A stretch of DNA of 32,000 nucleotides. Source: Desulfobulbus propionicus DSM 2032. Its GTDB lineage: Bacteria > Desulfobacterota > Desulfobulbia > Desulfobulbales > Desulfobulbaceae. Below the pieces are notes generated by a model. It had not been told where the DNA came from, made no database searches, and was given only the letters and a program-made list of their open reading frames with translations. The translations under genes were made by a program, and so were the position numbers. The stretch is taken from positions 420,001-452,000 of the forward strand of contig NC_014972.1 of the NCBI RefSeq assembly GCF_000186885.1, in the 5' to 3' direction. Position 1 is the stretch's first letter. Each line of letters opens with the position of its first letter. Shown piece by piece: positions 3,602-25,777 of the stretch.

Positions 3602-3605
3602 TGTT

Positions 3606-5604: not shown

Positions 5605-5933
5605 TTGAACACCTTCATCAGTTCAGAGTATCGGAATTTAGCAAGGTCGATATCCTTTCTTGAAGTTGCTTGCGTTTTCTTCTGAAATGCGTGGAGCACA
5701 AACACCGCGTCAGCAAGCCTTGCAGTATAGATAATGCGGAAAGTTCCGGATTCATCCCAGATGCGAATTTCTTCTACTCCTTTGCCGATAGAAGGCATGG
5801 GCTTAAAATCATCTGGCTGTTCCCCTCGTTGCACCTTATCAAGCTGATAACCGGAATCCTGCCGGGCACCCTCCGGAAAGGAACGTAAGCACTTCAAAGA
5901 ATCCCCGAGAAATCGAATCACTTTCATAAACAA
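5601..5933 (-). CDS. higB: HigB / RelE-superfamily toxin (Gp49-like, 110 aa)
   Basis: The motifs GVEEIRIWDESGTFRIIYTARLADAVFVLHAFQKKTQ are typical of phage Gp49/HigB-like toxins. The toxin-first gene order matches HigBA. Confidence 0.7.
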   Translation of the reverse strand: MFMKVIRFLGDSLKCLRSFPEGARQDSGYQLDKVQRGEQPDDFKPMPSIGKGVEEIRIWDESGTFRIIYTARLADAVFVLHAFQKKTQATSRKDIDLAKFRYSELMKVFK

Positions 5934-6192: not shown

Positions 6193-6404
6193 GTTGGTGA
6201 GTCACAAGTGACTTGTCCTCCTTTCAAAATACACAATGAGGGCAAACAGACTTCAGCAGGTGAATATATTGCGTTCCCCTTTTTCGTGCCTGCTGGTCAA
6301 AATTTCAATCCTTTCATTCTTTCCTTTGCAAATCCTGTAACTTGACGGTATTGCTTGCACACTAGACCGATTGTTCCCCCGCATCCCGCCGGGTGAGGAC
6401 CGCC

Positions 6405-7139: not shown

Positions 7140-7419
7140 GGACCAACAAGCAGCGAATCACTCGCTGAAAAAAAGTTTGGCGATTGCAACGGTGGCGGTT
7201 TCGCTGGGTATCGCCTTGGGGGTGGATGTCGTTGATGTCCTGGCAGGAGAAGGACCGGGCAGTCCTCCAACGCGCGCCCTTTCTCGTCAGGACAAGGATC
7301 TTGTTTCAAAGCAGCATAAGGATGTCAGTCAGATCCAGCAATCGACGCGACAGTCGATTAATCAGTCGAAACAAATCAAAATCGATAGCCACCCCTCTCA
7401 GACCATCTACGGAAAATAA
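7108..7419 (+). CDS. Small single-TM hypothetical protein (103 aa)
   Basis: A strong AGGAGG precedes the ATG. It has a TM segment (LAIATVAVSLGIALGV) and a Q/S/K-rich tail, and it overlaps the preceding gene by 32 nt. Confidence 0.5.
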   Translation: METTQNRQVDKDQQAANHSLKKSLAIATVAVSLGIALGVDVVDVLAGEGPGSPPTRALSRQDKDLVSKQHKDVSQIQQSTRQSINQSKQIKIDSHPSQTIYGK

Positions 7420-9981: not shown

Positions 9982-9997
9982 TGGCACGCTCGTTGCT
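9982..9997 (+). promoter_or_regulatory. Sigma-54 (-24/-12) promoter TGGCACGCTCGTTGCT
   Basis: It matches TGGCACG-N4-TTGCW exactly, with GG at 9983-9984, GC at 9995-9996 and correct spacing. It lies ~75 nt upstream of the first operon ATG (10072) and directly downstream of a sigma-54 activator gene. Confidence 0.75.
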
Positions 9998-10071: not shown

Positions 10072-10920
10072 ATGAAAAAAACAGTTTTCACAGCCGCTGT
10101 TATCTTTGCTTTGTCCGCCGGAGTTGCCCATGCCGATCATCGTGATCGCGGCGACTCGACGTTGCTGGGTTCTTTCGGCAGCAAACATCGAGGCGGGGCG
10201 ATCCATCACAACACCTTTGCCGCGCAGCCCATCACCAACACCAATTCCAACGTCATCACCATCAATACCTCGGCAACCCAGACCGCCACCCAGACCGCAA
10301 GCGCCACTTCGCCGGTGACCCAGACAACAACTTCCACCTCCACCTCTGACTCCGGCAGCAACGCCACCGCCACCAGCAGCAACACAGACAGTTCCACCAC
10401 CACGGCTGGCACCGATACCTCAGCCTCCACCACCGATTCGACCACGGACAGCACCACGGATACCACGGCGTCGACCACCGACAGCACCGATACCGCCGCT
10501 GACAGCACGGCCGATACCGCGACCGATGCCACCGCCGATGCCACGACCACCAGCGAGCAGAACGACGACCAGGATGGTCTCCAGGCCGAGATCCGCAACG
10601 AAATCAAAGGAGTTGGCAATATCTCCAGCACCATCTCCGGTGGCAACAACAACTTGGCCAACGCCGCCTCCATCTCCGTAGGCGGCAGTGCTCAGAGCAC
10701 TGATTCCATCATCAACAAGGTCAGTTCCGCCGGCAACATCTCCAGTTCGATCAAAGGCGGCAACAACAACCGCGCCAATGCAGCGTCCATCTCCATGGGC
10801 GGCGGCATCGCGGTCAAAGGCCGGGTGATCAACGAGGTTGAGGGCGCCGGCGATATTTCCAGTTCCATCGAGGGCGGCAACAACAACCAGGCTAACGCCG
10901 GTTCCATCGCCATCAACTGA
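10072..10920 (+). CDS. Secreted repeat protein A: signal peptide, Thr/Ser/Asp-rich linker, three 39-aa GGNNNxANAxSI (curlin-like) repeats
   Basis: GAGGAGG lies 6 nt before the ATG at 10072 (the ORF track uses a TTG at 10057). The signal peptide ends AHA. The GGCAACAACAAC motif occurs at 10642, 10759 and 10876, exactly 117 nt apart. Confidence 0.7.
   Translation: MKKTVFTAAVIFALSAGVAHADHRDRGDSTLLGSFGSKHRGGAIHHNTFAAQPITNTNSNVITINTSATQTATQTASATSPVTQTTTSTSTSDSGSNATATSSNTDSSTTTAGTDTSASTTDSTTDSTTDTTASTTDSTDTAADSTADTATDATADATTTSEQNDDQDGLQAEIRNEIKGVGNISSTISGGNNNLANAASISVGGSAQSTDSIINKVSSAGNISSSIKGGNNNRANAASISMGGGIAVKGRVINEVEGAGDISSSIEGGNNNQANAGSIAIN
10267..10554 (+). repeat. Low-complexity Thr/Ser/Asp/Ala-coding tract inside protein A
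   Basis: I count 39 Thr and 20 Ser in 96 residues. The DNA is built from reiterated ACC/ACG/GAC/AGC/GAT units (for example ACCACCGATTCGACCACGGACAGCACCACGGATACCACG). Confidence 0.8.
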
Positions 10921-11009
10921 TGTGCTTCCTCCCTCCGTGTCGCGGTCCGCATGTGCTGCGGCACGGAGTATCCCCTATTGCAAATGTTATCCTTCTGCGG
11001 AGAACCATC

Positions 11010-11603
11010 ATGAAAGTCCTGCATATTCTTACCATCGGCGCCCTGCTGCTGGCACCGGCCCTCAGCCAGGCGGACATGCTCGGCCTGCGCGTCGAGAACC
11101 GGGTCAAGGGCGGCGAGTACAGCGCCCGAACCAAGGGCAACAACAACATCGCCAACGCGGCCTCGATCAACATGACCGGCAGCACGGCGCGCGAGGTCAA
11201 CAATCGGGTTCAGGCCGCCGGCGCGATCTCCGCCTCGGCCACCGGCAACAACAACACCGTCAACAGCGCTTCGGTGCAGATGCAGAACTCGACCGCCGGT
11301 AAAGTGTCCAATACGGTCAAGGTTGATTCCATCGGCAACACGGTGCGGGGCAACAACAACATCTCCAATATCGGTTCGGTGTCGATGCGCAATTCCGCGG
11401 CCGGCGTGGTGACTTCCGAAGTGACCGGAGGTCAGTTGAACGGCGTGATCGACGGCAACAACAACCGCCTCAATGTCGGGTCGGTGCAGATGACCGAGGC
11501 CCAGCGCGGTGAGGTAATGACCAAAACCGATCTCGGCAACGTCTCGGTGTCGATGTCCGGCAGCAATTCCAGCGTGGCCATCGATTCGGTGGTCGCCAAC
11601 TGA
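11010..11603 (+). CDS. Secreted repeat protein B: signal peptide plus five ~35-aa GNNNxxNxxSV (curlin-like) repeats (197 aa)
   Basis: The signal peptide is MKVLHILTIGALLLAPALSQA. GGCAACAACAAC occurs at 11136, 11244, 11349 and 11454 (spacing 108, 105 and 105 nt), followed by one degenerate terminal repeat (SGSNSSVAIDSV). The ORF-track start at 10920 is an upstream extension. Confidence 0.7.
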   Translation: MKVLHILTIGALLLAPALSQADMLGLRVENRVKGGEYSARTKGNNNIANAASINMTGSTAREVNNRVQAAGAISASATGNNNTVNSASVQMQNSTAGKVSNTVKVDSIGNTVRGNNNISNIGSVSMRNSAAGVVTSEVTGGQLNGVIDGNNNRLNVGSVQMTEAQRGEVMTKTDLGNVSVSMSGSNSSVAIDSVVAN

Positions 11604-11623: not shown

Positions 11624-11947
11624 ATGCAAACGATCACCGCGACCCTGGTGCTGTCCCTGCTGCTGACGGGAATCTTCCGCGCGGACCCCGTCCGCGCCGA
11701 CGACCTCGATGACGGCATCACCATTGATGATTCGGCCTATTCGTACGGCAATATCAGCAGTTCGAGCCAAAATTTCTCCTATCTCGCCCAGCGGGCGCGG
11801 AGCAAGGCCGCATCGGGGTCCGGTGACGTGGTCCTGTCCGACAGCGGCGCGCTCAACAGCGTCATCCTCGATGCAGGGGCGCAGATCAATGGCGACATCA
11901 TCATCATCGATGATTCTTCGGGCGACAAGACCGTTATTTCCAATTAA
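11624..11947 (+). CDS. Small secreted hypothetical protein (107 aa)
   Basis: It has a GGAGGA RBS and the signal peptide MQTITATLVLSLLLTGIFRADPVRA. The mature part is Asp/Ser/Ile-rich. It sits where a curli accessory factor would, but I recognise no similarity. Confidence 0.55.
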   Translation: MQTITATLVLSLLLTGIFRADPVRADDLDDGITIDDSAYSYGNISSSSQNFSYLAQRARSKAASGSGDVVLSDSGALNSVILDAGAQINGDIIIIDDSSGDKTVISN

Positions 11948-11966: not shown

Positions 11967-13460
11967 ATGCCGTTTGTGACCATCAGACCCCGATCCCGGC
12001 GAGCGCCGGGCCTTTTGCTGTTGATGCTGCCGCTGGTTTTCCTGGGGCTGACCTCCTGCTCCTCGATTGACCCGCGCCAGGTGGATGTTGATCTGCCGTC
12101 GGACATGCCGGAGGTCAAGGAAACCAGCTTCGACAAGCCGCTGGCCGAATTGGGGCGGATGACCCAGATCTACGGCAAGCGGGCTTATATTCAGGGCAAG
12201 GATATCACCGACTTCACCGGCCTTTCCACCTATGGGTACGGTGAGATCCCGCGTGACATCACCGAGATGACCAAAAGCGCGCTCAACGCCATCGGCGGCA
12301 ACGTGGTCTACATCCCCTACAGTCCGGTGTTCATCAACAACCAGATGGTGACCGGTTATTCCAATTTCCAGGGCAAGCTGATTCCCGATGTCGTCCTCTC
12401 CGGCGGCATCACCGAATTTGACCGGGGCCTGGAAACCAGGGGCAGCAACACCGATTTCGGTGTGACCACCAAACCGTTCAACGTCAACGAATCCTGGGTG
12501 CCAGGCGATACCATATCCCTCGATTACAACCAGGAAGATCAGGATAGCCTGGCCCGGATCACCCTTGATTTCAACCTGCTCGATTTCCAGACCATGTCTG
12601 GCGTGGCCCGCATGCAGACGGTCAACACCATCAACGTCTACAAGGCGGTCAAGGAAAAAGAGCTCGGCTTTACCATCTTTGGCCCGACCTTCGGCCTCAA
12701 GGGCACGGTCAAGAAGGTGCAGGGCCGGCATGCGGCCATCCGTCTGCTGGTCCAGACCAGTGTGCTGCAGATCGTCGGCAAATACCTCTATCTGCCCTAC
12801 TGGAAGCTGATCCCCAACATGAAGCCCGATCCAGTGGTGCTCGACAAGATCCGTCAGGATTTCCGCAACCTGAGCCAAACCGACAAGGTCGGCGAAATGC
12901 AGACCTGTCTCTACCTCAAGGGGTACAATGTGCCAGTTACCGGCCAGCTCGATGCCCAGACCCAGTCCGCTCTGACCAGCTTCAAGCAGCAGTATGCAGT
13001 CCAGGGGGCGGGTGACGCCGAATTGTATGTCGCGCTGTGGAGTTCACTGGGTGACAACATGGAGCAGGTATCCTATCGCCGCGAACTGCTGGCCAGGGCC
13101 TTGGAGAATCCAAGCCAGCAGGCGGCGGTCGCCAAGGCGCCGGCGAAGAAGGAACCGGCCAAAGAGGTGGCCAACAGGGCGGCTGCACCTTCCGAGAAGG
13201 TGGCGACCCGCAAGGCGGCCGACAAATCCAGCGGGAAAAAGGATGTTCCGGCCCAGCGACGGGCCAGTTCCGGCCCGGCTGCCGTGGCCAGCACCGCGCC
13301 ATCCGAGATCAAGGCCGCAGGATCGGTCTCGAAAGAATCGACTCCTGTCAACCAGGACAAGGATCGCAACGACATCGCCCAGGTGTTGCGTAGTCAGCCG
13401 GTCCTGGGGAATAAAAATTCAGCGGAGGCAATGATCAATGAAAGGCGCATGGCCGAATAA
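11967..13460 (+). CDS. CsgG/HfaB-family outer-membrane lipoprotein fused to a peptidoglycan-binding-like domain and an Ala/Lys/Pro-rich tail (497 aa)
   Basis: The lipobox is LGLTSC. CsgG-like blocks are present (DITEMTKSALNAIGGNVVYIPY, DVVLSGGITEFDRGLE, ITLDFNLLDFQT, and AAIRLLVQTSVLQIVGKYL). A PG_binding_1-like segment follows (MQTCLYLKGYNVPVTGQLDAQTQSALTSFKQQY). Confidence 0.7.
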   Translation: MPFVTIRPRSRRAPGLLLLMLPLVFLGLTSCSSIDPRQVDVDLPSDMPEVKETSFDKPLAELGRMTQIYGKRAYIQGKDITDFTGLSTYGYGEIPRDITEMTKSALNAIGGNVVYIPYSPVFINNQMVTGYSNFQGKLIPDVVLSGGITEFDRGLETRGSNTDFGVTTKPFNVNESWVPGDTISLDYNQEDQDSLARITLDFNLLDFQTMSGVARMQTVNTINVYKAVKEKELGFTIFGPTFGLKGTVKKVQGRHAAIRLLVQTSVLQIVGKYLYLPYWKLIPNMKPDPVVLDKIRQDFRNLSQTDKVGEMQTCLYLKGYNVPVTGQLDAQTQSALTSFKQQYAVQGAGDAELYVALWSSLGDNMEQVSYRRELLARALENPSQQAAVAKAPAKKEPAKEVANRAAAPSEKVATRKAADKSSGKKDVPAQRRASSGPAAVASTAPSEIKAAGSVSKESTPVNQDKDRNDIAQVLRSQPVLGNKNSAEAMINERRMAE

Positions 13461-13758
13461 TTTCGGAGGCGGTTTGCTGGCGGGGGGGCTGGTGGTCCTG
13501 TTGGCCGGTCTGCTCATGGGAGCGGTTCATCACGATCCGCCTTCCCTGCCGGTGGCGGTGCTCGACCCGCAGGTGGAACGGCCCGTGCCCCTTGCCAGCA
13601 ATGGTCGTTATCAGATTGTCACCTGGCAGGGCGGCGGCGGATACGGGGCCTTTGTCCTCGACACCGCGACCGGCACCACCAAGGTCGCCTACAGCTCGAT
13701 CAAAGGACCGGGTGGCAAAAGCGTCAACAATATCGGCAAACCCTTTGCCCAGATGTAA
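13438..13758 (+). CDS. Small membrane-anchored hypothetical protein (106 aa)
   Basis: It has a GGAGG RBS and one N-terminal TM segment (GGLLAGGLVVLLAGLLMGAV). It overlaps the upstream gene by 23 nt. Confidence 0.5.
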   Translation: MKGAWPNNFGGGLLAGGLVVLLAGLLMGAVHHDPPSLPVAVLDPQVERPVPLASNGRYQIVTWQGGGGYGAFVLDTATGTTKVAYSSIKGPGGKSVNNIGKPFAQM

Positions 13759-13768
13759 GGAGTATGCA

Positions 13769-14950
13769 ATGCAGTGCAGTGATCGGACGGAGGAGTTGAA
13801 AATGAAGTGGTGGCAAAAGTTGCAACCCGTGGCTGCGGAGTTGATCATCCTGGCGCTAGTGCTGGCTGCTGTGCTGGCGGCCAACCTCGGCCATGCGGCC
13901 ACAGCCGGTGGCCCGGCGCAGGGGTATGGATTGAAGATCTTCCGCGTGGAGTCGGGACTGTATCCCTTTGTTCATGTCTACATGCGCACCTTTGACCAGG
14001 AAATGAATCCCCTGGTCAACCTCAACGTGCTCAACATCGGGGTGATGGTCGAGGGACGGGCCTACGATCCGAGAAAAAAACAGTATGTCATTCAACCGTT
14101 GCGCAACCGGGAGGAAGCGACCCGCTCCATCCTGGTGCTCGACACCAACAAGATGCTGAAGGGGCAGGATTTTGAAGCCATGATCCGGGCAGCGGCCCGG
14201 TTCATCGACGCCAAGCGGCCCCAGGATCAGGTGGCCCTGATCGCCCTGGACAACAGTGGCGAGGGATATACGGTCTTGTCCAATTTCGACCGCGAACCGG
14301 GCATCCTCGGTCGGCGGCTGGCCGATCTGCAGCCGCGCGGCGACAAGACCAGGCTCTACGACGGGGTGGCGGCCGCCATGCAGATGGCCGGTGGCGCGGT
14401 GGGCGGCGATTCCTCCAGCGAGGTGGAATACATTGTTTCGACCTCGATCATCGTGCTGGGGAGCGGCCGGGATGACGACAGCGCCATCAGCCGTTCCGAT
14501 CTGATGACCCGCATTTCCAGCCTGAAAATTCCGGTGCCGATCTATTCGTTGTGCTTTACCGGTCCCGAGGGCAAGGATCAGCGCAACCTGCAGGCCCTGT
14601 CGAAGAATTCCTTCGGCAAGTACTACTCCATTGGCGGCGCCTACGACACCATCACGCGCAATATCGAGGATATTCAAAACATCATGCAGAGCGACTACGT
14701 GCTCACCTTCCGGGCCTACATTCCGGTGGACGGCGGCAGGCACAATGTCAAGATCGGGGTCGAATATCCGACCGGCAGCGGCATCATGTACTATGACGCC
14801 TCCGTGTTCGAGGCCATCGAACCGCCGACCTTCCCCCGGATCATCGAGGCGCAGCAGAAGCTCGACAAGGCGATCCCCGCGCTCAAGGATGAGGAATTGT
14901 ATCTGAAAAATCCTTACGCTCCGGCGGCGGTACCGGGCGGGAAAAGCTGA
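13769..14950 (+). CDS. Exported or membrane-anchored von Willebrand factor A (VWA) domain protein
   Basis: The VWA pattern is SILVLDTNKMLKG...VALIALDN...GDKTRLYDG...IIVLGSGRDDDS, and the MIDAS position reads DTNKM rather than DxSxS. The ATG at 13769 has an AAGGAG RBS. The alternative ATG at 13802 (MKWWQK...) also has a GGAGGAG RBS. The ORF-track start at 13592 overlaps the previous gene. Confidence 0.7.
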   Translation: MQCSDRTEELKMKWWQKLQPVAAELIILALVLAAVLAANLGHAATAGGPAQGYGLKIFRVESGLYPFVHVYMRTFDQEMNPLVNLNVLNIGVMVEGRAYDPRKKQYVIQPLRNREEATRSILVLDTNKMLKGQDFEAMIRAAARFIDAKRPQDQVALIALDNSGEGYTVLSNFDREPGILGRRLADLQPRGDKTRLYDGVAAAMQMAGGAVGGDSSSEVEYIVSTSIIVLGSGRDDDSAISRSDLMTRISSLKIPVPIYSLCFTGPEGKDQRNLQALSKNSFGKYYSIGGAYDTITRNIEDIQNIMQSDYVLTFRAYIPVDGGRHNVKIGVEYPTGSGIMYYDASVFEAIEPPTFPRIIEAQQKLDKAIPALKDEELYLKNPYAPAAVPGGKS

Positions 14951-15051
14951 TCCTGTCCTTCGGCGTGGATTGATAGCGCAACACGGTTCTTGTGCAGCCT
15001 CCGACCGCCCTCCCGAGCACCCGGGGGCTGCACTTTTATTCTCCTCATCGC

Positions 15052-17667
15052 ATGGCATCCTCCAGGCATCATTCTTCCCCCAGCGAACATACCGCTTATT
15101 TGGCAGCCAGGGCTGCCGGATGCGCCCATCGGGAGTATTGTCTCACCTCGGCGAGCACAACCATCGGACGCGATGGCACCCTCTGCGACATTGTCCTTAC
15201 CGGCGCCACTGTCTCGCGCCGCCACGCCTGCTTATCTCGAACGGGTGAAACCGACTATCAGCTCCACGATCTCCAGTCCACCAACGGAGTATTTGTCAAC
15301 GGCGAGCGGATTAAGGGTTCGCGCTTTCTGCGTGATGGCGACCTGATCGGGCTTGGCACCGCCCTGCCGCATCTGCGTTTCCAATATCACAGCATCCGGG
15401 AACCGCATCACCTGATTCTGCCACCCCAGGCCCAGTGGCTGATCGGCCGGGCTCCCCACTGCGATCTCTCCCTGCCCTTCGAGCCAACGGTCAGCTCCCA
15501 CCATGCCACCCTCAGTAGCCAAGATGGCACACTGCGAATCGCCGACGCCCACAGCCTCAATGGAACCTGGGTCAACGGCTCGAACCGGTTCAAGGCGTTC
15601 CTTGCCCCCGACGACACCGTGGTCATCGGGTCCACGCATTTCCAGTTCCGTCTCCGGGAGGACGGTTCGCTGTCCGTGCTCCAACGGGAATATGGCCAGT
15701 CGGTCAAACTGGAATGTGTCGGTCTCCACCGCACCGCCCCGCGTGCGAACGGCACGGCGAGAATGCTGCTCAACGACATCACTCTGAGCATTGAACCCGG
15801 CGAATTTGTAGGTATTCTCGGCCCTTCGGGCGCGGGCAAGACTACCCTGCTCACCGCCCTCAATGGTTTCAGCCGTCCGGACCGGGGGTGGGTGCTGTGC
15901 AACGAGACGCCCATGGACAGCGCCTCGGCCCTGTTCCGCAACACCATCGGCTATGTGCCCCAGGATGATATTCTCCACCGGGAGTTGAGCGTGCAGGCCA
16001 GCCTTGAATATGTCGCCCGCCTGCGGTTGTCGCCGGATCTTTCTCCACGCCAACGTGCCGAGATCATCGACAACACGATCGAAACCCTTGGATTGCACCC
16101 GGTGCGGCACCTGCCGATCGACCAACTGAGCGGCGGCCAGCGAAAACGGGTGTCCATCGGCGCGGAGCTGCTGGTTCGCCCAAGCCTGCTCTTCCTCGAC
16201 GAGCCCACCTCAGGACTGGATCCCAGCACCGAGGACCGGCTGATGCATCACTTCCGGGACATGGCCGACCACGGCACCACGGTGATCATTACCACCCACC
16301 TGCTCGACAACCTCGACCTGCTGGACAAGGTGGTGATTCTCGCCCAGGGACGGGTGGTCTTCTTCGGCGCCCCCTCCGAGGCCCTAACCTTCTTCGGCAC
16401 GGAGCAGCAGCCCCTTGCCCGGGCAACCGGTATCTTCGCCGTGCTCACCGAGGCGGACACCCCGTCCTCGGCAGCGGCATCCTCCTGGAAAGGGCAGGAG
16501 GAGATCGCCACCCATCATGCCGCCCGTTTCCTCGCCTCTCCCTGGTTTCGGCAACATATCGAACAGCGGCTTTCGCCGGCAGCCCACGCGTGCATGGCCA
16601 TGGATACCGCCTCCCCCTCTCGGCCGCTAGCACGGCTGCGCACCCTGTGGGCCGATCGTTCACGGCGCGGCCATGGTTTTTCTCCTGGCGAATGGCTGCG
16701 TTCCTGGTGCATTCTTTCGCGTCGCCACCTGCACATCCGTGCCAGTGCCGGCAAACGGCTGCTGCTGTTCCTGCTCATTCCCATGGCGCTGGCCCTGGTG
16801 ACCCTGTCGCAGCATATCCCTGGCGTGGCCAGCGACGCGGTAGTGGCGGAACGGAGGGCCGAAATAGAGGCCCTGGTTGCCCCAGGCGGCGCCCTGATGG
16901 ACACGCAGCTCAAGCTCCTCCTGTCTCCGGCCGGCATTGGCGAAACCCGTTCGGGCGCTGAATTGCTCCACGCCCTGCGTTACGAAGGCATCGCGCATTT
17001 GCCGGTTCCCATGAGCGTCTTGCTGATGATCGTCATGACCGCCGTGTTTTCCGGCACCCTGATCGCCTGTCAGGAAATTTCCACCGAGCGGTCGATTTAC
17101 CTCCGGGAGCGGATGTCCCATCTGCGCATCCTGCCGTACCTTGGGGCGAAAATGCCTTTTTGCCTGGGGCTTGCCGCCCTGCAGTGCCTGATCTTTCTCT
17201 CCCTGTGCTGGCTCAACCCCGCCCTGCGCCAGGCGGATTTCTTTCCGGTCTGGCTGACCATGGTCGCCGTGGCCTGGAGTTCGGTGGCCATTGGGCTGAC
17301 CCTGAGCGCTGTTGATCCGACCGGCGGCCGGTTGTCGGTGATGCTGACCGTGGCCGTGGTCCTGCCGCAGTTGCTGCTTTCCGGCGGCCTCGGTCCTGAT
17401 TTTTACGGGCGCATGCACGGCCCGCTGCGCCTGGCGGCGGATCTGCTGCCGGCCCGCTGGGGGCTGGAGATGGTGTGCACCGCGCTGTTCGATACACTCA
17501 AGGGCGAGGGCGCGCGATGGATTCCAGCCTTTGTCCGTGAGGTGATAGGTTTTGACTTCGGCCAGGGCGTCTATTATAGTGGCATGATCTTTCTGTTGGC
17601 TCAATTCCTGCTTTGGGTGCTGTTCTGCACAGGATTCCTGACTTACCGCGATAGACGATCATGTTGA
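15052..17667 (+). CDS. FHA-FHA-ABC ATPase-ABC-2 permease fusion (Rv1747-type exporter)
   Basis: It has two FHA domains (TIGRDGTLCDIVL...SRRHACL...STNGVFVNG and LIGRAPHCDLSL...SSHHATL...SLNGTWVNG). The ATPase shows Walker A GPSGAGKTT, signature LSGGQRKRVSIG and Walker B LLFLDEPTSGLD. The C-terminus is multi-TM. The start is uncertain, either the ATG at 15052 or the GTG at 14992. Confidence 0.85.
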   Translation: MASSRHHSSPSEHTAYLAARAAGCAHREYCLTSASTTIGRDGTLCDIVLTGATVSRRHACLSRTGETDYQLHDLQSTNGVFVNGERIKGSRFLRDGDLIGLGTALPHLRFQYHSIREPHHLILPPQAQWLIGRAPHCDLSLPFEPTVSSHHATLSSQDGTLRIADAHSLNGTWVNGSNRFKAFLAPDDTVVIGSTHFQFRLREDGSLSVLQREYGQSVKLECVGLHRTAPRANGTARMLLNDITLSIEPGEFVGILGPSGAGKTTLLTALNGFSRPDRGWVLCNETPMDSASALFRNTIGYVPQDDILHRELSVQASLEYVARLRLSPDLSPRQRAEIIDNTIETLGLHPVRHLPIDQLSGGQRKRVSIGAELLVRPSLLFLDEPTSGLDPSTEDRLMHHFRDMADHGTTVIITTHLLDNLDLLDKVVILAQGRVVFFGAPSEALTFFGTEQQPLARATGIFAVLTEADTPSSAAASSWKGQEEIATHHAARFLASPWFRQHIEQRLSPAAHACMAMDTASPSRPLARLRTLWADRSRRGHGFSPGEWLRSWCILSRRHLHIRASAGKRLLLFLLIPMALALVTLSQHIPGVASDAVVAERRAEIEALVAPGGALMDTQLKLLLSPAGIGETRSGAELLHALRYEGIAHLPVPMSVLLMIVMTAVFSGTLIACQEISTERSIYLRERMSHLRILPYLGAKMPFCLGLAALQCLIFLSLCWLNPALRQADFFPVWLTMVAVAWSSVAIGLTLSAVDPTGGRLSVMLTVAVVLPQLLLSGGLGPDFYGRMHGPLRLAADLLPARWGLEMVCTALFDTLKGEGARWIPAFVREVIGFDFGQGVYYSGMIFLLAQFLLWVLFCTGFLTYRDRRSC

Positions 17668-19085
17668 ACGACGACATCCAGACGCTGATCGACCCCAGCG
17701 TTGTCCAGCCGCTCAAGGCCGTGGCGGTCAGCGACAGTGGCGTGCTGATCGCCGACCGGTATCGGATGCTGCGACCGCTTGGCGAAGGAGGCATGGGCAA
17801 TGTCTACTTGGCCGAGGATCTGGTGTTGGCGCGGCGCGTGGCGATCAAGACCATTCGGCCGGAGTTGAGCGGCAACGAAGAGATCCGCTCGCGCATCAAG
17901 CGTGAATGCCGCATGCATGCGGCCATTGGCGTCCATCCCCATATCATCACCCTCTACGACTCGGTCGAGGAAAACGGGCATATCTACCTGGTGATGGAGT
18001 ATTTTGCCGGCGAGACCCTGGCCGCTCGGCTTGCCTCGCAAACTGGCGAGCAAGGCCTCCCGCTGGACCAGACGCTCGATATCGTCCGCCAGGTACTCCG
18101 CGCCTTGGCCTGCATCCATGACCAGGGGATCGTCCATCGCGACATCAAGACCGCCAACATCCTCCTCCAGCAGGGGACCGACGGCAATCTGCGCGTCAAG
18201 CTCGCCGATTTCGGCATTGCCCGGGCGGGGATGGCGGCGCAAACCGTGACCCGCCTGACCGCTCTGGATGTTCAAGGGCCGGGGACGCCGGTGTACATGG
18301 CGCCGGAGCGGATCGACCCGCAGACCTTCGGCGGGGTCTGTCCCGCTTCGGACCTTTACGCGGTGGGCATCATCCTCTTTGAACTGCTCACCGGACACCC
18401 CCCCTTCACCGGCTCCATGACCGAGATTTTTTCCGGCCATCTGGTCCAGCCGCCGTGCCTGGACCGCCTGCCAGCCACGCTTCCCCCCACGGTACTGGCG
18501 GTTCTTCGCACCGCCTTGGCCAAACAGCCATCGGAGCGGTTTCAGCGCGCCCAGAGCTTTCTTGAAACCTTGGAGGGGGGGCACCCGAGCTTGGACCATG
18601 CCTTCATTCCGCCCCGGGCACCCTCCCACCCGCCGGTTCACGCTCAGACGCTCTTGGCCGTGTCGGCGGAACCGACGGCGCAAAGCGAGTCCGTTACCCT
18701 ACTGAACCCGTCGTGCGGGGCTGGCCGTGGCTCAGATCCTTCGCGGCGATGGCGGCAAGGGTTGATGTATGCGGCACTGGCCTGCGTGCTGGTGCTTGTC
18801 AGCGGATGGTATCTGTACGATCATTTTGTCACCCCATCCTTGACCGCCTCTGCGCCCGTCAACAGCCAAGAAATCACCACGACGGGATCCGAAAAGGACA
18901 CGGTTGCCGTCCCTGCCAGCGTTCCGGACGACATCGAGGCGGCCAAAACCGTCACCGCCTTGCAGACGTTGGAAAAGGTCCGGCAGCAAAAAACCATCGA
19001 ATCCATGGCCGCCGCCGAGCGCCCCGGGGGCAATCCGGCAAACGAGTGGCAGGTGATCGAAGACCGCTCGCGAAGAATACGCTGA
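17661..19085 (+). CDS. Hanks-type Ser/Thr protein kinase with one TM segment and a short extracytoplasmic tail (474 aa)
   Basis: Kinase motifs are GEGGMGNVY, VAIK, HRDIKTANILL, DFGIAR and GTPVYMAPE. The TM segment is LMYAALACVLVLVSGWYLY. It overlaps the ABC gene by 7 nt. Confidence 0.9.
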   Translation: MLNDDIQTLIDPSVVQPLKAVAVSDSGVLIADRYRMLRPLGEGGMGNVYLAEDLVLARRVAIKTIRPELSGNEEIRSRIKRECRMHAAIGVHPHIITLYDSVEENGHIYLVMEYFAGETLAARLASQTGEQGLPLDQTLDIVRQVLRALACIHDQGIVHRDIKTANILLQQGTDGNLRVKLADFGIARAGMAAQTVTRLTALDVQGPGTPVYMAPERIDPQTFGGVCPASDLYAVGIILFELLTGHPPFTGSMTEIFSGHLVQPPCLDRLPATLPPTVLAVLRTALAKQPSERFQRAQSFLETLEGGHPSLDHAFIPPRAPSHPPVHAQTLLAVSAEPTAQSESVTLLNPSCGAGRGSDPSRRWRQGLMYAALACVLVLVSGWYLYDHFVTPSLTASAPVNSQEITTTGSEKDTVAVPASVPDDIEAAKTVTALQTLEKVRQQKTIESMAAAERPGGNPANEWQVIEDRSRRIR

Positions 19086-19099: not shown

Positions 19100-19657
19100 A
19101 TGTCAGGTAAATTGGTCCTCGTTGTTCTTGCTGTCGGCAGCTTGCTTCTTGGCGGCTGCGCGCCCCTGGTGTTCACCGCCGGGGCCGGAACCGGATACGT
19201 GGCGACGCAGGATAAACCGCGGAACAAGATCGAGGCCTTTTTTGACGATCTGGCCAGATCAATCCGGCAAACGACCCGCAAGATCACCGGGGCTCCCCCC
19301 AGCCGGCGGAAAAGCACCGCCAAGCCGACGTCCACATTGCAGCTGGCCATTCAAAAAGCCACTCTCTCCCCGGCCAAGGTCCGCACCGGCGATCAAATTA
19401 CCCTGACCCTGCGCTACAGCATTGCCGGTGCGCCGAAAAAAGGGATCCAGGTTCGAGAGAAAAGTTCCTTGTCCAAGGACGGCAAGACGTTGAGTCTCTT
19501 GAAGGACGAATCCTCGCAACGGGAAAACGGGGTGTGGGAAAATACCTTGTCTTTCGCGGTCCCCCAATCGGCTAAACCGGGCAGCTACACTGTGACCATG
19601 CGGATCAGCGCCCAAGGCCTGAACCGGAACGTCCGAAAGACCTTTACCGTCCAGTGA
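19100..19657 (+). CDS. Lipoprotein with a beta-sandwich-like C-terminal domain (185 aa)
   Basis: The lipobox is in MSGKLVLVVLAVGSLLLGGC. The ORF-track start at 18713 is an Arg-rich extension overlapping the kinase gene. No clear RBS is present. Confidence 0.55.
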   Translation: MSGKLVLVVLAVGSLLLGGCAPLVFTAGAGTGYVATQDKPRNKIEAFFDDLARSIRQTTRKITGAPPSRRKSTAKPTSTLQLAIQKATLSPAKVRTGDQITLTLRYSIAGAPKKGIQVREKSSLSKDGKTLSLLKDESSQRENGVWENTLSFAVPQSAKPGSYTVTMRISAQGLNRNVRKTFTVQ

Positions 19658-19713: not shown

Positions 19714-20514
19714 ATGGAGCTCCTTGAGGGGCATTGCCGCATGGGCGGTTTCCAGGTCGTCTATGCCGGGGCAACCGATCCGGGGCGAGTGCGTCGCTGC
19801 AATGAAGACAATCTGCTGATCTATCCCGAAGCCGGCGTCTTTGCCGTGGCCGACGGGCTGGGTGGGTTGGATGCGGGAGATGTTGCCAGCAGCACGGCGC
19901 TCGCGCATCTGCGAGAGCTTGTCCCGACCCCTTTCGCCGGCAACAGGTTTTTTGCCTTGTTCAACGACAAACACCCATTGCGGCAACTTGAAGCGGTGGT
20001 GGCCGCGGTCAATCGCCGAACCTATGAGCATCGAATGACCCTGGGCAAGAACATGGCCACCACCTTGGCCATGGTGCAGCTGCGAGGCGACAAGGTCGTG
20101 CTTGCCCACGTCGGTGACAGCCGCGTCTATCGCTGGCGCGACAATGCATTGCACTGTCTCACCAGCGACCATTCCTTGGTCAATGAACTGGTGCGGAAAG
20201 GGGCCTTGACTGCTTCCCAGGCCAGACAGTCCTCCCAGCGCCACGTCATCACCCGCGCGGTCGGCGCGGAACCGACCGTCATGCCCACCTTGCAACAACA
20301 GCCGCTGGCGGTAGGCGACATCCTGCTGCTGTGCACCGACGGGTTGACCAGTATGCTGTCGGACAGGGACATCGGTCAATGCCTTGGTAACGCGGCCACC
20401 ACCATCGGCGGCAGCGTGGCGCAACTCATCACCTTGGCCAACCAAGCTGGTGGGCATGACAACATCACCGTGGTGGGCGTGATCCTGCTGCCGATAGAAG
20501 AGAAGTCGGATTGA
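19714..20514 (+). CDS. PP2C-family Ser/Thr phosphatase (266 aa)
   Basis: Motifs are RRCNEDN, FAVADGLGG, AHVGDSRVY, LLLCTDGL and GGHDNITVV. Confidence 0.9.
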   Translation: MELLEGHCRMGGFQVVYAGATDPGRVRRCNEDNLLIYPEAGVFAVADGLGGLDAGDVASSTALAHLRELVPTPFAGNRFFALFNDKHPLRQLEAVVAAVNRRTYEHRMTLGKNMATTLAMVQLRGDKVVLAHVGDSRVYRWRDNALHCLTSDHSLVNELVRKGALTASQARQSSQRHVITRAVGAEPTVMPTLQQQPLAVGDILLLCTDGLTSMLSDRDIGQCLGNAATTIGGSVAQLITLANQAGGHDNITVVGVILLPIEEKSD

Positions 20515-20542: not shown

Positions 20543-20574
20543 AAAAAAGGCGTTCCAATGGAACGCCTTTTTTT
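20543..20574. terminator. Bidirectional rho-independent terminator between the convergent PP2C and MFS genes
   Basis: The structure is AAAAAA-GGCGTTCC-AAT-GGAACGCC-TTTTTTT, a perfect 8-bp stem flanked by A and T runs. Confidence 0.85.
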
Positions 20575-22447: not shown

Positions 22448-23416
22448 TCAACGGGAAGACGTTCGATCCAGATCCTCGAGAAGACGCCGCACGGCCTGTT
22501 CCTTGGCCTTGGCCTCGACTTCGACGGTGATCCGCAGGGAACGCCAGCAATCGGGCAGGTCGCACGGGTCTATGAAATCGTGGTGGGGCCGGGGATTGGC
22601 GCTGTGCCAACCGTCCCTTGGGCTGGACAGGTGAAAGAGCGGTTCCCTGGTCCAGGTGGCCAGGGCCTGTTCGGTGACCTGTTCGACACGTAGCCCATCG
22701 GCGAGGCAGCGGTGATGATGGACATCGTACACAAAGGGGAGGCCGGTTGCCCCACAAACCGGCAGCAGGTCAGCCGGCGTGTAGATGCGATCGTCGTTTT
22801 CCAGGGCCAGTCGCGAACGTACCGGGTCTGACAAACATTCCACGGCGGTGCGCAGCCGTTGCAACGCCGCCGCCTTGTCACCGTAGGCGCCACCGCCATG
22901 GAGAGTGATCACATCGGCGCCAATCCATCGCGCCGCCTCGGCATGATACTCCAACTCGGCGAGCGACCGGACGAGAACGCCGGCATCCGGCGAGGACAGC
23001 AGCGTGAACTGGTCGGGATGAAAACTCAGGCGAATGTTGTGCTGCCGCGCCAGGGCCGCCGCCTGGCGATACGTCTGTTCGATGGCGGCATGGTCGGGTA
23101 GTTCGGCCAGGGCGTAGCCCTGCTGGGGATGGGTTTTCAAGGGGAAGATGCGGCTGTTGACCCGGAACGCGCCGATACGGTTGCGGGAACAGTAGACGAT
23201 GGCCGCCTGCAGGGCCTGGCCGTTGGCCAGAACCGTGTCCGCAAGGAGGGCCAGCTGCCGGGCGCGGTCAAACTTCGCCAGGTATGCGGCCTGGCGGATG
23301 GCGAAACGAATCGGCTCCTCCTTGAACAGACAGCAGAGCCCCCAACGAATCCGTTCATATCCTCGTCCTCCCTTGCTGTCGTCGTGACCAACGGAAGGCG
23401 CGTGCTGTTGCCGCAT
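22448..23416 (-). CDS. uvsE: UV-damage endonuclease UvdE/UvsE family
   Basis: Family blocks are RWGLCCLF, FRVNSRIFP, RLSFHPDQF, ITLHGGGAYGDK, LALENDD and VYDVHHH. GGAGGA precedes the ATG at 23416. The ORF track extends it to 23485. Confidence 0.8.
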   Translation of the reverse strand: MRQQHAPSVGHDDSKGGRGYERIRWGLCCLFKEEPIRFAIRQAAYLAKFDRARQLALLADTVLANGQALQAAIVYCSRNRIGAFRVNSRIFPLKTHPQQGYALAELPDHAAIEQTYRQAAALARQHNIRLSFHPDQFTLLSSPDAGVLVRSLAELEYHAEAARWIGADVITLHGGGAYGDKAAALQRLRTAVECLSDPVRSRLALENDDRIYTPADLLPVCGATGLPFVYDVHHHRCLADGLRVEQVTEQALATWTREPLFHLSSPRDGWHSANPRPHHDFIDPCDLPDCWRSLRITVEVEAKAKEQAVRRLLEDLDRTSSR

Positions 23417-23641
23417 GCGGGTTTTTCCTCCGGTGATTGTTGCCTGCCAGCCGCTTGGCCGATTCCCGGAACCGGGAGTCTGCAAGAAAAAGCGTGTTTG
23501 CGGGGTTGAGCAAACAGCTTGTGGCCGCCCCTGCCGTTACCCCGTGATCGCCGCGGGACTCTGCTTGCGTTGAGGGCCAGGCTCCACTATCATACAACGA
23601 CATCGAAGGCTGAACACAACAACTTTTTGCCGGAGCGCGCC

Positions 23642-25777
23642 ATGGCCGACAGTCTGTATATCGCCAACCTGGAAAAGGATTGCGGGAAACTGGTCGTCAC
23701 CCTCGGAGTGATGGAACTTCTCTCACGCCGGATCGGCCGGGTGGGCTTCTTCCGGCCGATCATCCCCGGTGACGGCAAGGAGGACAACGACATCAACCTG
23801 ATCAAGCAGCGCTACAACATCAGCCTGCGTTTCGACGAGATGGCTGGTGTCAGCCATGAACTGGCCCGCGCCCTGATCGCCGAAGGCAACGAACTGGGGC
23901 TCTTTCGGGAGATTGTCCGCAAATACGGCGAGGTGCGCCGCAAGTGCGATTTCCTTCTTTGCGAGGGACCCAACATCATCAGCATGTCCGAGGCTTTTGA
24001 CTACGACATCAGCATTCGCATCGCCCGCGAGCTGGGCACGCCCACCCTGCACGTGGTTAACGGCCGCAACCGGGACGTGGCCGAGATCCAGGAAAATATC
24101 GGCGTGGCGGAGAAGATCTACGAACAGTACCAGTGCCCGCTGCTGGCCATCTTCGTCAACCGCATCGATCCCGCCCTGTTGGCGGAGGCCGAGGCCGAAA
24201 TCAGGGCCAGCCACCAGGGCAAGCCCTATCGCCTCGATTTTCTGCCGGAGATGAAGGGGTTCAGCATGCCGACCATGGAGGAAATCATCGAGGCCCTGGG
24301 GGCGCGCCACTTCAGCGGCCCCAAGGCGGGGCTGCAACGCGATGTCCATGCCATCAAGGTGGCGGCAATGAGCCCGGCCAACTACATCGATTTCCTCGAA
24401 GAAGACGACATGATCGTCACCCCCGGCGACCGGCCGGATATCATTTTCGCCACCCTGGGGGCTATTGCCTCGCGCAACTATCCCTCGCCGGCCGGCATGC
24501 TGCTGTCCGGCAACCTGGAACCGAGCTCCTCCATGGTCCGGTTGCTCGACGGACTCGACGACCTGTCGTTGCCCATTTACCTGATCCCCGGCGATACCTA
24601 CACCGTTGCTCAGCGTGCCGGCGAGATCAAGGGGACCCTGCGGCCGCACAATGAACAGAAGATTGCCCGGGCACTCGGGGTGTTCGAGAGTCATGTCGAT
24701 ACCCTTGGCCTGGAACAGCAGGTGATCGAAACCGTGGCCACCATCATGTCGCCGCTAATGTTCGAGTATTCGCTTTTCCAGCGGGCCAGGGCCGATCGCC
24801 AGCACATTGTCCTGCCCGAAGGCGAAGACGAGCGCATTCTTCGCGCCGCCGAGATTCTCCGTGCCCGCGAGGTGGTCGATCTCACTCTGCTCGGCGAGGA
24901 AAAAACCATTCGCAACCGGGCCGCCTCTCTCGGGCTGAAGCTCCAGGATGTGACCATTATCGACCCCAAGAGCTCACCGTTGCGCGAGGCGTTCATCGAG
25001 AGCCTCTATGAGGCGCGAAAGTACAAGGGGATCACCCGAGACTGGGCCCATGACGCCATCAGCGATGTCAGCTACTTCGGTACGCTGATGGTCCATACCG
25101 ACCGCGCCGACGGCATGGTGTCCGGTGCGGTCCATACCACCCAGCATACGGTTCGTCCGGCCTTTCAGATCATCCGTACCCGCCCCGAAGTGTCGGTGGT
25201 CTCGAGCGTCTTCTTCATGTGCATGGAGACGCGGGTGCTGGTCTACGGTGACTGTGCGGTCAACCCCAACCCCAACAGCGAGGAACTGGCCGAAATCGCC
25301 ATCCGCTCGGCAGAGACGGCCGCCATGTTCAACATCGAGCCGATCGTGGCCATGCTCTCCTATTCCAGCGGCTCTTCCGGCCAGGGCGAGGATGTGGAAC
25401 GGGTGCGCGAGGCCGTTCACCTGGCCCGCGCGCGGAGGCCCGGGCTCAAGATCGATGGACCGATTCAGTACGATGCGGCCATCGATCTCTCGGTGGCCCA
25501 GGAGAAGATGCCGGAAAGCGAGGTGGCTGGCCGGGCGACCGTGTTCATTTTCCCGGATCTCAACACCGGCAACAACACCTACAAGGCAGTGCAGCGGTCC
25601 GCCGGGGCGGTGGCCATCGGCCCCATCCTCCAGGGGTTGAACAAGCCGGTCAATGACCTCAGCCGCGGCTGCCTGGTGTCCGATATCGTCAACACTGTGG
25701 CCATCACCGCCATTCAGGCCCAGGCCGTGAAAAAACAGGCCTGGTTACAATCAGCGCCAGCAGCGACCACGATCTGA
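23642..25777 (+). CDS. pta: Phosphate acetyltransferase, long form (N-terminal P-loop-like/DRTGG region plus PTA_PTB domain, 711 aa)
   Basis: The N-terminus is MADSLYIANLEKDCGKLVVTLGVMELL...FFRPI. The C-terminal half carries IVLPEGEDERILRAA and SGAVHTT...VAMLSYS, followed by IFPDLNTGNNTYK. The ORF-track start at 23519 is an extension. Confidence 0.9.
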   Translation: MADSLYIANLEKDCGKLVVTLGVMELLSRRIGRVGFFRPIIPGDGKEDNDINLIKQRYNISLRFDEMAGVSHELARALIAEGNELGLFREIVRKYGEVRRKCDFLLCEGPNIISMSEAFDYDISIRIARELGTPTLHVVNGRNRDVAEIQENIGVAEKIYEQYQCPLLAIFVNRIDPALLAEAEAEIRASHQGKPYRLDFLPEMKGFSMPTMEEIIEALGARHFSGPKAGLQRDVHAIKVAAMSPANYIDFLEEDDMIVTPGDRPDIIFATLGAIASRNYPSPAGMLLSGNLEPSSSMVRLLDGLDDLSLPIYLIPGDTYTVAQRAGEIKGTLRPHNEQKIARALGVFESHVDTLGLEQQVIETVATIMSPLMFEYSLFQRARADRQHIVLPEGEDERILRAAEILRAREVVDLTLLGEEKTIRNRAASLGLKLQDVTIIDPKSSPLREAFIESLYEARKYKGITRDWAHDAISDVSYFGTLMVHTDRADGMVSGAVHTTQHTVRPAFQIIRTRPEVSVVSSVFFMCMETRVLVYGDCAVNPNPNSEELAEIAIRSAETAAMFNIEPIVAMLSYSSGSSGQGEDVERVREAVHLARARRPGLKIDGPIQYDAAIDLSVAQEKMPESEVAGRATVFIFPDLNTGNNTYKAVQRSAGAVAIGPILQGLNKPVNDLSRGCLVSDIVNTVAITAIQAQAVKKQAWLQSAPAATTI

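Follow-up and report, generated by a model that had tools for sequence, protein, structure and literature searches.

A compact tandem-FHA ABC exporter and its adjacent Ser/Thr kinase in a predicted envelope module of Desulfobulbus propionicus

Our analysis concerns a 32,000-nucleotide stretch of Desulfobulbus propionicus DSM 2032 (contig NC_014972.1, positions 420,001 to 452,000), which we call the window, and in particular two neighboring genes on its + strand. The first (15052–17667) encodes a half-transporter of 871 amino acids (aa), predicted to be of the ABCG type, that carries two FHA domains in tandem. The second (17661–19085) encodes a single-pass receptor-type Hanks Ser/Thr kinase of 474 aa (Pfam Pkinase, E 4.4e-51). 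Judged from the sequences, the exporter belongs to a compact subfamily that is distinct from proteins of the Rv1747 type, known from Mycobacterium tuberculosis. Exporter and kinase appear to form an envelope module together with an extracytoplasmic VWA protein and a small lipoprotein, to which some loci add a PP2C phosphatase.

Both genes are in the second half of a ten-gene cluster on the + strand, with an activator gene immediately upstream. We read the cluster as one operon and infer that exporter and kinase are cotranscribed. The activator (7815–9704, + strand) is a 629-aa FHA-GAF-sigma54 enhancer-binding protein (Pfam Sigma54_activat 2.8e-57, FHA 2.8e-16, GAF_2 6e-11, HTH_8 6.6e-15). It is followed by a sigma-54 promoter, TGGCACGCTCGTTGCT (9982–9997, + strand), about 75 nucleotides (nt) 5' of the first gene of a fiber module. 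This module starts with two secreted repeat proteins: one with a signal peptide, a Thr/Ser/Asp-rich low-complexity region and three 39-aa GNISS-I-GGNNN-ANAASI repeats (10072–10920), the other with a signal peptide and four repeats of about 35 aa of the form G-N-N-N-x-x-N-x-[AG]-S-[IV] (11007–11603). A small secreted accessory protein of 107 aa (11624–11947) comes next, then a 497-aa lipoprotein with a predicted CsgG-like N-terminal fold and the lipobox LTSC (11967–13460), and a small single-pass membrane protein of 106 aa (13438–13758), the start of which overlaps the 3' end of the lipoprotein gene.

The second half of the cluster begins with the extracytoplasmic VWA protein (13769–14950; Pfam VWA_2 4.1e-7, one transmembrane or signal segment). 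Exporter and kinase are followed by a small lipoprotein of 185 aa (19100–19657; lipobox LGGC, C-terminal beta-sandwich-like domain) and by a PP2C-type Ser/Thr phosphatase (19714–20514; Pfam PP2C_2 6.2e-12), which scores slightly below the 230-bit cutoff of the NCBIfam model Stp1_PP2C_phos (2.3e-64, 217 bits). A bidirectional intrinsic terminator (20543–20573, acting on both strands; 14-bp stem with A and T runs on either side) ends the operon, facing a convergent MFS gene. No strong internal terminator was found within the operon, and Rfam and tRNA scans of the window gave no matches. Gene order is identical, and a sigma-54 promoter is found at the equivalent place, in D. oligotrophicus (locus L001) and in two further Desulfobulbaceae loci (L004 and L005); the sequence of L005 stops inside the exporter gene. 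The D. oligotrophicus cluster has a different upstream chromosomal context, where it adjoins a gene for phosphoenolpyruvate carboxykinase (PEPCK).

The gap between the VWA and exporter genes contains a GC-rich hairpin (14992–15033, + strand), which is followed by CUUUUAUUCU. Locally the hairpin is notable; the RNA fold of the whole gap is no better than that of shuffled sequences (z −0.88). Strong GC-rich hairpins, with a different sequence each time, are predicted in the corresponding gaps (48–136 nt) of the window and of L001 to L005. They may act as partial terminators or as mRNA-stabilizing elements, lowering the expression of exporter, kinase, and phosphatase compared to the fiber and VWA genes.

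The exporter could be translated from a GTG at 14992 (891 aa, 14992–17667) or from an ATG at 15052 (871 aa). The ATG is the likely start, because the database protein P0001 is identical to the shorter form (100% identity and coverage), because the N-termini of homologs agree with it, and because the GTG lies inside the intergenic hairpin. In the 891-aa open reading frame (ORF) Pfam finds two FHA domains (E 4.5e-34), ABC_tran at residues 260–407 (E 1.1e-30), and ABC2_membrane at residues 674–833 (E 4.2e-12). The order FHA-FHA-ABC ATPase-ABC-2 permease, proposed earlier in a sequence-only reading of this DNA, is thus confirmed for every domain, and the FHA regions pass a profile search. In the protein, FHA1 (about aa 24–112) and FHA2 (about aa 118–205) are followed by the nucleotide-binding domain (NBD, about aa 220–450), a helical connector, and six transmembrane helices (571–863). 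An extracytoplasmic helical insert of about 65 aa lies between the first two of these helices; it is a trait of the subfamily and does not occur in a Streptomyces relative. All parts of the nucleotide-binding site are intact and invariant across 40 homologs: Walker A (GPSGAGKT), Q-loop, LSGGQ, Walker B/E (LLFLDEP), and H-loop. The same invariance is seen for the canonical residues with which FHA domains bind phosphothreonine (pThr), namely G39, R40, S55, H58, and N78 in FHA1 and G132, R133, S148, H151, and N170 in FHA2.

An AlphaFold model of the exporter, built from a 40-sequence alignment, has a pLDDT of 87.3 and a pTM of 0.83. Residues 12–230 are packed together at block pLDDT values of 79–94, and disorder is confined to residues 1–11, 469–474, and 521–526. 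When the model was searched against the PDB with Foldseek, the top 50 matches were all ABCG2, ABCG25, ABCG16, ABCG5/8, or ABCG1 (TM-scores 0.63–0.79). Its NBD and transmembrane domain superpose on ABCG structures at about 20% identity over about 680 columns, mostly with target-normalized TM-scores of 0.74–0.79. The NBD sequence also matches ABCG2 (E 1.7e-35), and the best NCBIfam match is the ABCG/EPP subfamily TIGR00955, at 208 bits, far under its 736-bit cutoff. The exporter core is therefore predicted to have the ABCG fold. Characterized ABCG proteins transport sterols, lipids, hormones, and hydrophobic drugs. Hence, the predicted fold suggests a lipid or another hydrophobic substrate, and a lipid-like or hydrophobic component of the envelope is the most likely substrate class.

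Two FHA domains on an ABC exporter beside a Hanks kinase are also found in M. tuberculosis, where PknF positively regulates Rv1747 through its FHA domains (PMC3138270, PMC8339232). The FHA domains of Rv1747 are separated by a disordered linker of about 100 aa that contains T152 and T210 (T150 and T208 in the earlier numbering) (PMC8339232). Regulation acts via these two threonines; phosphorylation compacts the module and drives clustering of the protein (PMC3138270, PMC8339232). Rv1747 is suspected to move cell-wall glycolipids (PMC8339232). Its FHA-2 structure (6cah) is the second-best solved-structure match of the N-terminal region of our exporter (E 6.8e-9). A Streptomyces relative from the Rv1747-like group aligns with the window exporter at 30% identity over 692 columns (E 4e-73), from FHA-2 through the transmembrane domain, and its FHA-1 aligns separately because of the long linker of that protein. 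Of the alignment to Rv1747 and to ABCG exporters that the sequence-only reading called for, the part with Rv1747 covers its FHA-2, and the part with ABCG proteins gives the predicted fold and a score below the TIGR00955 cutoff.

What the window exporter does not share with Rv1747 is the linker. Measured from envelope to envelope, its two FHA domains are 6 aa apart, and the gap is 6–8 aa across the window and L001 to L005. We compared 85 FHA-ABC loci including the window, the six-frame ORFs of which were searched with the window proteins; in the remaining 79 loci the gap is 15–172 aa, and in ten Streptomyces loci it is 92–117 aa. The segment between the FHA domains of the window exporter contains no Thr, and AlphaFold models it with confidence, the two domains packed against each other without a disordered linker. 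Lacking the disordered linker with its acceptor threonines, the window exporter cannot be subject to the linker-phosphorylation mechanism of Rv1747, and the assay proposed earlier, phosphorylation of an inter-FHA linker by the adjacent kinase, would find no substrate. Many FHA-ABC relatives carry three or four FHA domains. A search of the tandem-FHA region against 1.84 billion cluster representatives returned 17 matches at E ≤ 1e-30, about a dozen of which are proteins of 850–910 aa that match the entire module without interruption. The best 120 database matches of the exporter all have the same architecture, at an identity of at least 45%.

Even so, the exporter might still work in cis as Rv1747 does. 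The kinase would then phosphorylate Thr or Ser residues of the exporter, and the FHA domains would bind these sites within or between exporters, which would lead to clustering and activation as described for Rv1747. For this mechanism there is the direct precedent of Rv1747 (PMC3138270, PMC8339232), and the exporter does have two low-confidence loops with Ser or Thr in the connector between NBD and transmembrane domain (DTPSSA at 469–474, and 521–526 beside T519), as well as a disordered N-terminus. The connector is variable and often Ser/Thr-rich in homologs. However, there is no disordered inter-FHA linker, with gaps of 6–8 aa throughout the subfamily, the candidate loops comprise 6 residues each and show no sequence conservation, and no Thr is conserved N-terminal to FHA1. 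Multivalent clustering of the Rv1747 type also relies on a long flexible linker that holds several pThr sites, and this exporter has no such linker. We regard regulation in cis as unlikely.

A site in the kinase offers another way for the FHA pair to be used. The catalytic motifs VAIK, HRD, DFG, and APE are intact, and the kinase domain (aa 34–295) is followed by a transmembrane helix (aa 367–385) and a short extracytoplasmic tail terminating in the conserved EWQVIEDRSRRIR. Most of the tail is of low complexity, except for two conserved terminal motifs, SALxxLE and (E/G)W-x-V-x5-R-[KR]-I, through which the kinase could plausibly touch the VWA protein or the lipoprotein. On the cytoplasmic side, 9–25 residues N-terminal to the transmembrane helix, all eight subfamily kinases carry the motif x-T-[VLM]-L within an otherwise variable segment. 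It reads SVT346LLN in the window (T346 at nt 18696–18698), ATVLS in L001, ATVLA in L004, STMLD in L002, ATLLD in L003, ATVLD in L089, KTLLK in L087, and STMLS in L088. The same motif is present in the linker between the FHA and GAF domains of the activator, in all three orthologs that can be read there: SAT126VLFN in the window (T126 at nt 8190–8192), ETILFN in L001, and ETMLFH in L004. No site of this type was found in the other cluster proteins predicted to face the cytoplasm. Elsewhere in the cluster the motif occurs just once more, in secreted repeat protein 1, and we regard this match as chance. From this pattern, seen in a small sample, we propose that T346 of the kinase would be the pThr site for docking of the exporter FHA pair in trans, with the activator as a further target of the kinase.

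Among solved structures, the catalytic domain of PknF (7NAA, E 6.9e-41) matches the kinase best, by a margin of just 4 bits over PknA. The kinase ATG at 17661 overlaps the exporter stop codon (TGA, 17665–17667) by 7 nt (tcATGTTGAac), exactly as the sequence-only reading had it (ATGTTGA). D. oligotrophicus has a similar overlap (ATGCTGA), another Desulfobulbaceae locus has a gap of 7 nt, and in distant members of the subfamily the two genes are 33–75 nt apart. The close linkage of exporter and kinase is conserved; the overlap itself is lineage-specific.

Exporter and kinase also keep fixed company. We examined eight complete loci of the subfamily (the window, L001 to L004, and L087 to L089), with exporter identities of 46–67%. 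All eight have a gene for an extracytoplasmic VWA protein 5' of the exporter gene, either directly or with one inserted gene, and a receptor-type kinase gene 3' of it. A small lipoprotein gene, recognizable by a shared C-terminal beta domain, lies 3' of the kinase gene in seven of the eight; outside Desulfobulbaceae this lipoprotein has a Gly-zipper at its N-terminus. L087 is the locus where no homolog of the lipoprotein was found. Four other genes separate its exporter and kinase genes, and a PP2C gene faces the kinase gene. The four inserted genes (L087, 10683–13443) are two for FGE-sulfatase-domain proteins, one of which has a weak caspase-like Peptidase_C14 match, and two small unannotated ones.

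The VWA protein consists of an N-terminal signal or anchor, a beta domain, the VWA domain, and a C-terminal beta domain. It has no sequence match in the PDB. Its metal ion-dependent adhesion site (MIDAS, DxSxS) is degenerate: DTNKM in the window, DTNK[MTSA] in Desulfobulbaceae, and DCSKT in distant subfamily members. Going by these residues, metal-dependent ligand binding may have been lost in Desulfobulbaceae.

That an extracytoplasmic VWA protein and a lipoprotein strictly accompany the exporter could also mean that the ABC protein is chiefly a mechanotransducer or scaffold. ATP hydrolysis would then move the periplasmic insert of about 65 aa onto the VWA protein or the lipoprotein, possibly upstream of the kinase. 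The arrangement would be analogous to TagST, of the Pseudomonas type VI threonine-phosphorylation pathway, or to FtsEX. The insert is specific to the subfamily and absent from the Streptomyces relative, and the parts list resembles PpkA (VWA)-PppA-Fha1-TagQRST. On the other hand, the predicted fold is that of ABCG proteins, the characterized members of which are substrate exporters, and not the MacB/FtsX fold. In addition, FHA domains on the ABC protein place it downstream of the kinase. A role chiefly as a mechanotransducer or scaffold is decidedly unlikely. We rejected a type VI pathway proper: no type VI components are among the window ORFs that were scanned against Pfam.

VWA proteins, kinases, and PP2C phosphatases also occur together in conflict systems (PMC7159879). 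The cluster could accordingly be an anti-phage or conflict system of this type that has nothing to do with envelope transport. Two PADLOC kinase models, PD-T4-6 and mad6, fit the kinase strongly (E 3e-79), and a filamentous-phage remnant and a toxin-antitoxin pair lie 2–8 kb upstream. But the PADLOC matches are generic ones to kinase domain and ABC ATPase; the VWA protein and both lipoproteins, including the CsgG-like one, match nothing, and there is no match at system level. The VWA protein is extracytoplasmic, in contrast to the cytoplasmic VWA proteins of conflict systems, and the D. oligotrophicus cluster sits in a different upstream context, beside the PEPCK gene. A defense function seems extremely unlikely to us, and with PADLOC matches at the level of domains only we rejected it.

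A further candidate role for the exporter comes from the genes upstream of it. The sequence-only reading placed the pair in an operon for secreted repeat proteins with a CsgG-type pore. The lipoprotein in question (lipobox LGLTSC at residues 26–31, with L28 and C31 conserved in at least 90% of 26 homologs) has, apart from its CsgG-like part, a weak PG_binding_1-like region and a disordered Lys/Ala/Pro-rich tail. Its AlphaFold model, built with the 26 homologs, has an overall pLDDT of 65.8 and a well-modeled N-terminal core. All 23 Foldseek matches in the PDB at E ≤ 0.001 are CsgG (E 5e-6 to 1e-3, probability 1.00), followed by FlgT, PelC, and GNA1162. These CsgG matches are modest, with target-normalized TM-scores of 0.34–0.48 and identities of 10–13%. 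No CsgG match (PF03783) was found in Pfam even at E ≤ 10, in NCBIfam, or among PDB sequences. The predicted fold hence places the lipoprotein in the CsgG superfamily, and membership of the curli CsgG family is not supported by sequence. Of the proposed CsgG-type pore, the fold stands as a prediction, the profile match does not, and the role as a pore is putative. For the repeat proteins no family was found in Pfam (Curlin_rpt included) or NCBIfam, nor any match to curlin, Fap, or a solved structure; secreted repeat protein 2 likewise has no PDB sequence match.

If exporter and fiber genes work together, the exporter could supply the fiber pathway, as the sequence-only reading suggested, either by exporting a lipid or glycan component of the matrix or as a checkpoint that directly permits the repeat proteins to leave through the CsgG-like pore. 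In all four Desulfobulbaceae loci, exporter and fiber genes belong to one sigma-54 operon, and the lipoprotein encoded upstream has the predicted CsgG-like fold. Yet the two sets of genes are separable. Trichloromonas (L085) and L086 have homologs of the CsgG-fold lipoprotein, the small secreted protein, the small membrane protein, and a repeat protein occurring together. The small secreted protein is conserved in L001, L004, and L005 and in both of these fiber-only loci, the small membrane protein has its homolog in L085, and repeat protein 2 has its homolog in L086. No exporter, kinase, VWA protein, or sigma-54 promoter was found in L085 and L086. Conversely, no fiber genes, activator, or sigma-54 promoter were found in the kinase-exporter loci L002, L003, and L087 to L089. 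Fiber and kinase-exporter sets are thus separable modules that are joined in Desulfobulbaceae. It follows that the ancestral role of the exporter is independent of these fibers. The link of the exporter to the fiber pathway is therefore weak, as each module occurs without the other. Curli-type secretion is also not known to require an inner-membrane ABC exporter. Altogether, a direct role of the exporter in making fibers is very unlikely.

Joining of the two modules goes along with the activator. The FHA-bearing activator and its promoter are present only in loci where fiber and kinase modules are joined, and no sigma-54 site was found in fiber-only or kinase-only loci. TGGCAC-N5-TTGC at 9982–9997 is the sole match in the window to the sigma-54 consensus with zero mismatches, and L001, L004, and L005 each have a single equivalent site at the same place. 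The activator combines an AAA+ sigma-54 interaction domain with a C-terminal HTH_8 domain, and the cognate −24/−12 promoter is nearby. Its GAFTGA loop (residues ~389–403) is non-canonical: GAFHEA in the window and L005, GAYHEA in L001, and GAYQDA in L004. Such a loop is unusual for a protein encoded beside a perfect and conserved sigma-54 promoter.

FHA-ABC exporters with kinases are not restricted to this subfamily. We scanned a genome collection with one genome per species, which returned at least 600 stretches, mostly distant relatives, and should be read as a sample. Among the matches listed, FHA-ABC-ABC-2 fusions occur in at least nine phyla at about 28–41% identity, including Chloroflexota, Acidobacteriota, Cyanobacteriota, Actinomycetota (many Streptomyces, also Frankia), Myxococcota, Verrucomicrobiota, and Planctomycetota. 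At least 39 of the 85 loci have one or more Hanks kinases within the fetched flanks, and in at least 22 of the 85 a kinase gene and the exporter gene are separated by no more than about 450 nt; many contigs end early, and both counts are lower bounds. The adjacent kinase gene can be upstream and codirectional (as in pknF-Rv1747), downstream and codirectional (as in the window), or divergent. Pairing of an FHA-ABC exporter with a kinase recurs across phyla and is not a mycobacterial peculiarity. The view of the window genes as the counterpart of Rv1747 and PknF therefore holds for domain order and for the adjacent kinase but not for the idea of a special pair. FHA-ABC fusions outside mycobacteria and the set of VWA protein, exporter, kinase, and lipoprotein are both undescribed in the literature we searched, which leaves out most subscription journals. 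FHA domains on bacterial ABC transporters were reportedly noted in comparative work by Pallen et al. in 2002.

What could this system do? The best explanation, which we consider about evenly balanced between right and wrong, is an ABCG-fold half-transporter, presumably a homodimer, the activity or assembly of which is controlled by Ser/Thr phosphorylation via a rigid tandem FHA region, within a conserved envelope module. The kinase would be activated via its short conserved extracytoplasmic tail, in contact with the VWA protein, the lipoprotein, or both. It would then autophosphorylate on the juxtamembrane T346 within x-T-[VLM]-L. The FHA pair of the exporter would dock in trans on this pThr of the kinase; in Rv1747 the acceptors are instead in its own linker. 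Docking would turn on or cluster the exporter, which would move a lipid-like or hydrophobic component of the envelope. The PP2C phosphatase presumably resets the system. In Desulfobulbaceae the module lies downstream of a curli-like fiber module, all under one sigma-54 promoter. The linker of the activator carries, at T126, an S-A-T-V-L motif like that of the kinase. Transcription of the entire operon, the kinase gene included, is probably set by this kinase too, which would close a feedback loop. In its widest form, the proposal is a trans-envelope device in which x-pT-[VLM]-L of the kinase recruits an ABCG exporter via a rigid double FHA, and in which the same kinase in Desulfobulbaceae drives a self-reinforcing operon for curli-like fibers via an FHA sigma-54 activator. 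This wider claim is tentative and, in our opinion, fairly unlikely to be right in full.

Several observations weigh against control of the exporter by docking on the kinase, and against its extension to the operon. The subfamily is known here from genes and predicted structures. The juxtamembrane motif is short, has been seen in eight kinases and three activators, and could signal something else. Short loops of the exporter that contain Ser or Thr (DTPSSA, 469–474; T519/S521/S523) could serve as acceptors in cis. The ABCG fold comes from a predicted model and leaves the substrate unnamed. Rv1747 was compared directly through FHA-2, with Streptomyces relatives as proxies. The MIDAS of the VWA protein is degenerate in Desulfobulbus. 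Finally, with the non-canonical GAFHEA loop, the capacity of the activator to drive sigma-54 transcription is a prediction from its domains.

Other genes lie on either side of the activator and operon. A low-GC (0.40–0.55) remnant resembling a filamentous phage extends from 71 to 5311. It includes a Zot/pI-type morphogenesis protein (1865–2713, − strand; Pfam Zot 2.3e-7, phrog_1675 1.8e-12) and a CI-like repressor (4390–4797), with no ORF of at least 100 aa between them (2714–4389). Next to the remnant is a toxin-antitoxin pair on the − strand, in which a Gp49/HigB-like toxin gene (5601–5933; Pfam Gp49 6e-25) overlaps that of an HTH_37 antitoxin (5323–5604; 2e-26). Between this pair and the activator are a CxxCxxCC putative Zn/Fe-chelating protein (6393–7139; Pfam 2.9e-12) and an uncharacterized 103-aa ORF (7108–7419). 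Farther downstream are two housekeeping genes, one for a UvdE UV endonuclease (22448–23485, − strand; Pfam 1.1e-53) and one for a full-length Pta, the N-terminal domains of which are DRTGG and AAA_26 (23519–25777).

An FHA-gated ABC exporter with a cognate kinase is an already known kind of system, and its architecture will not surprise a specialist. What is distinct here is the linker-less FHA pair, the fixed envelope partners, and the lineage-specific wiring to sigma-54 and a curli-like fiber module. Rv1747 is needed for growth of M. tuberculosis in macrophages and mice, and its substrate is still unknown (PMC8339232). FHA-gated ABCG-type exporters with kinases are widespread, and the invariant VWA and lipoprotein partners provide comparative handles on what is sensed and what is transported. 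With its linker-less tandem FHA, the subfamily offers a natural test of whether FHA gating requires phosphorylation sites in cis and clustering or whether docking on the kinase is enough. The Desulfobulbaceae arrangement is a compact candidate for control of sigma-54 transcription and of a curli-like fiber by a Ser/Thr kinase, and D. propionicus can be cultivated. If the widest form of our proposal is true, a phosphothreonine circuit would couple envelope export, fiber secretion, and transcription.

Rv1747-PknF is among the closest known systems. The order FHA-FHA-NBD-ABC-2-type transmembrane domain, the adjacent codirectional Hanks kinase, and the intact pThr-binding sites of both FHA domains are shared, and 6cah and 7NAA rank among the best solved-structure matches of the window pair. 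In contrast to Rv1747, the window exporter has no disordered linker of about 100 aa and no equivalent of T152/T210, and it has the extra extracytoplasmic insert of about 65 aa between the first two transmembrane helices. The genes are ordered exporter–kinase in the window and pknF–Rv1747 in M. tuberculosis (PMC3138270). Furthermore, the window locus has obligatory VWA and lipoprotein neighbors, a PP2C gene, a sigma-54 promoter, and an FHA-containing activator, and its host is diderm. Eukaryotic ABCG half-transporters (ABCG2, ABCG1, ABCG5/8, AtABCG25) likewise have the NBD before a six-helix transmembrane domain. Unlike them, the window exporter is bacterial, bears the tandem FHA at its N-terminus, and stays below the TIGR00955 cutoff.

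For the module as a whole, the PpkA-PppA-Fha1-TagQRST system of P. aeruginosa comes to mind, strictly as an analogy. It likewise combines a receptor kinase and an associated periplasmic VWA domain with a PP2C phosphatase, a reader protein of the FHA type, a lipoprotein, and an ABC complex. The association of PpkA with VWA (PMC1262709) and the type VI threonine-phosphorylation pathway (PMC5995506) have both been described. The differences are that in the window the VWA protein is separate, the FHA domains are fused to the ABC protein, and the predicted fold is that of ABCG instead of a LolCDE/MacB-like one.

The activator resembles the FHA-domain sigma-54 enhancer-binding proteins of Myxococcus xanthus, which are probably under Hanks kinase control, as reportedly described by Jelsbak et al. 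in 2005. As in those proteins, an N-terminal FHA domain replaces the receiver domain on an AAA+ activator. Unlike in M. xanthus, the operon that the activator is predicted to drive itself encodes a candidate kinase, a phosphatase, and two more FHA domains, and the GAFTGA loop of the activator reads GAFHEA. The upstream half of the operon, finally, is like curli in that it has two secreted imperfect-repeat proteins rich in Asn, Gly, and Ser, a small secreted protein, and an outer-membrane-type lipoprotein. It is unlike curli in its repeats, which are 35–39 aa long with a GNNN turn compared to 19–23 aa for the curlin repeat, in lacking Curlin_rpt and CsgG profile matches, and in its modest TM-scores. 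The lipoprotein differs from CsgG by its extra PG-binding-like region and its long disordered tail. Regulation differs as well: curli is controlled by CsgD, whereas the window operon is predicted to be controlled by sigma-54 and Ser/Thr phosphorylation.

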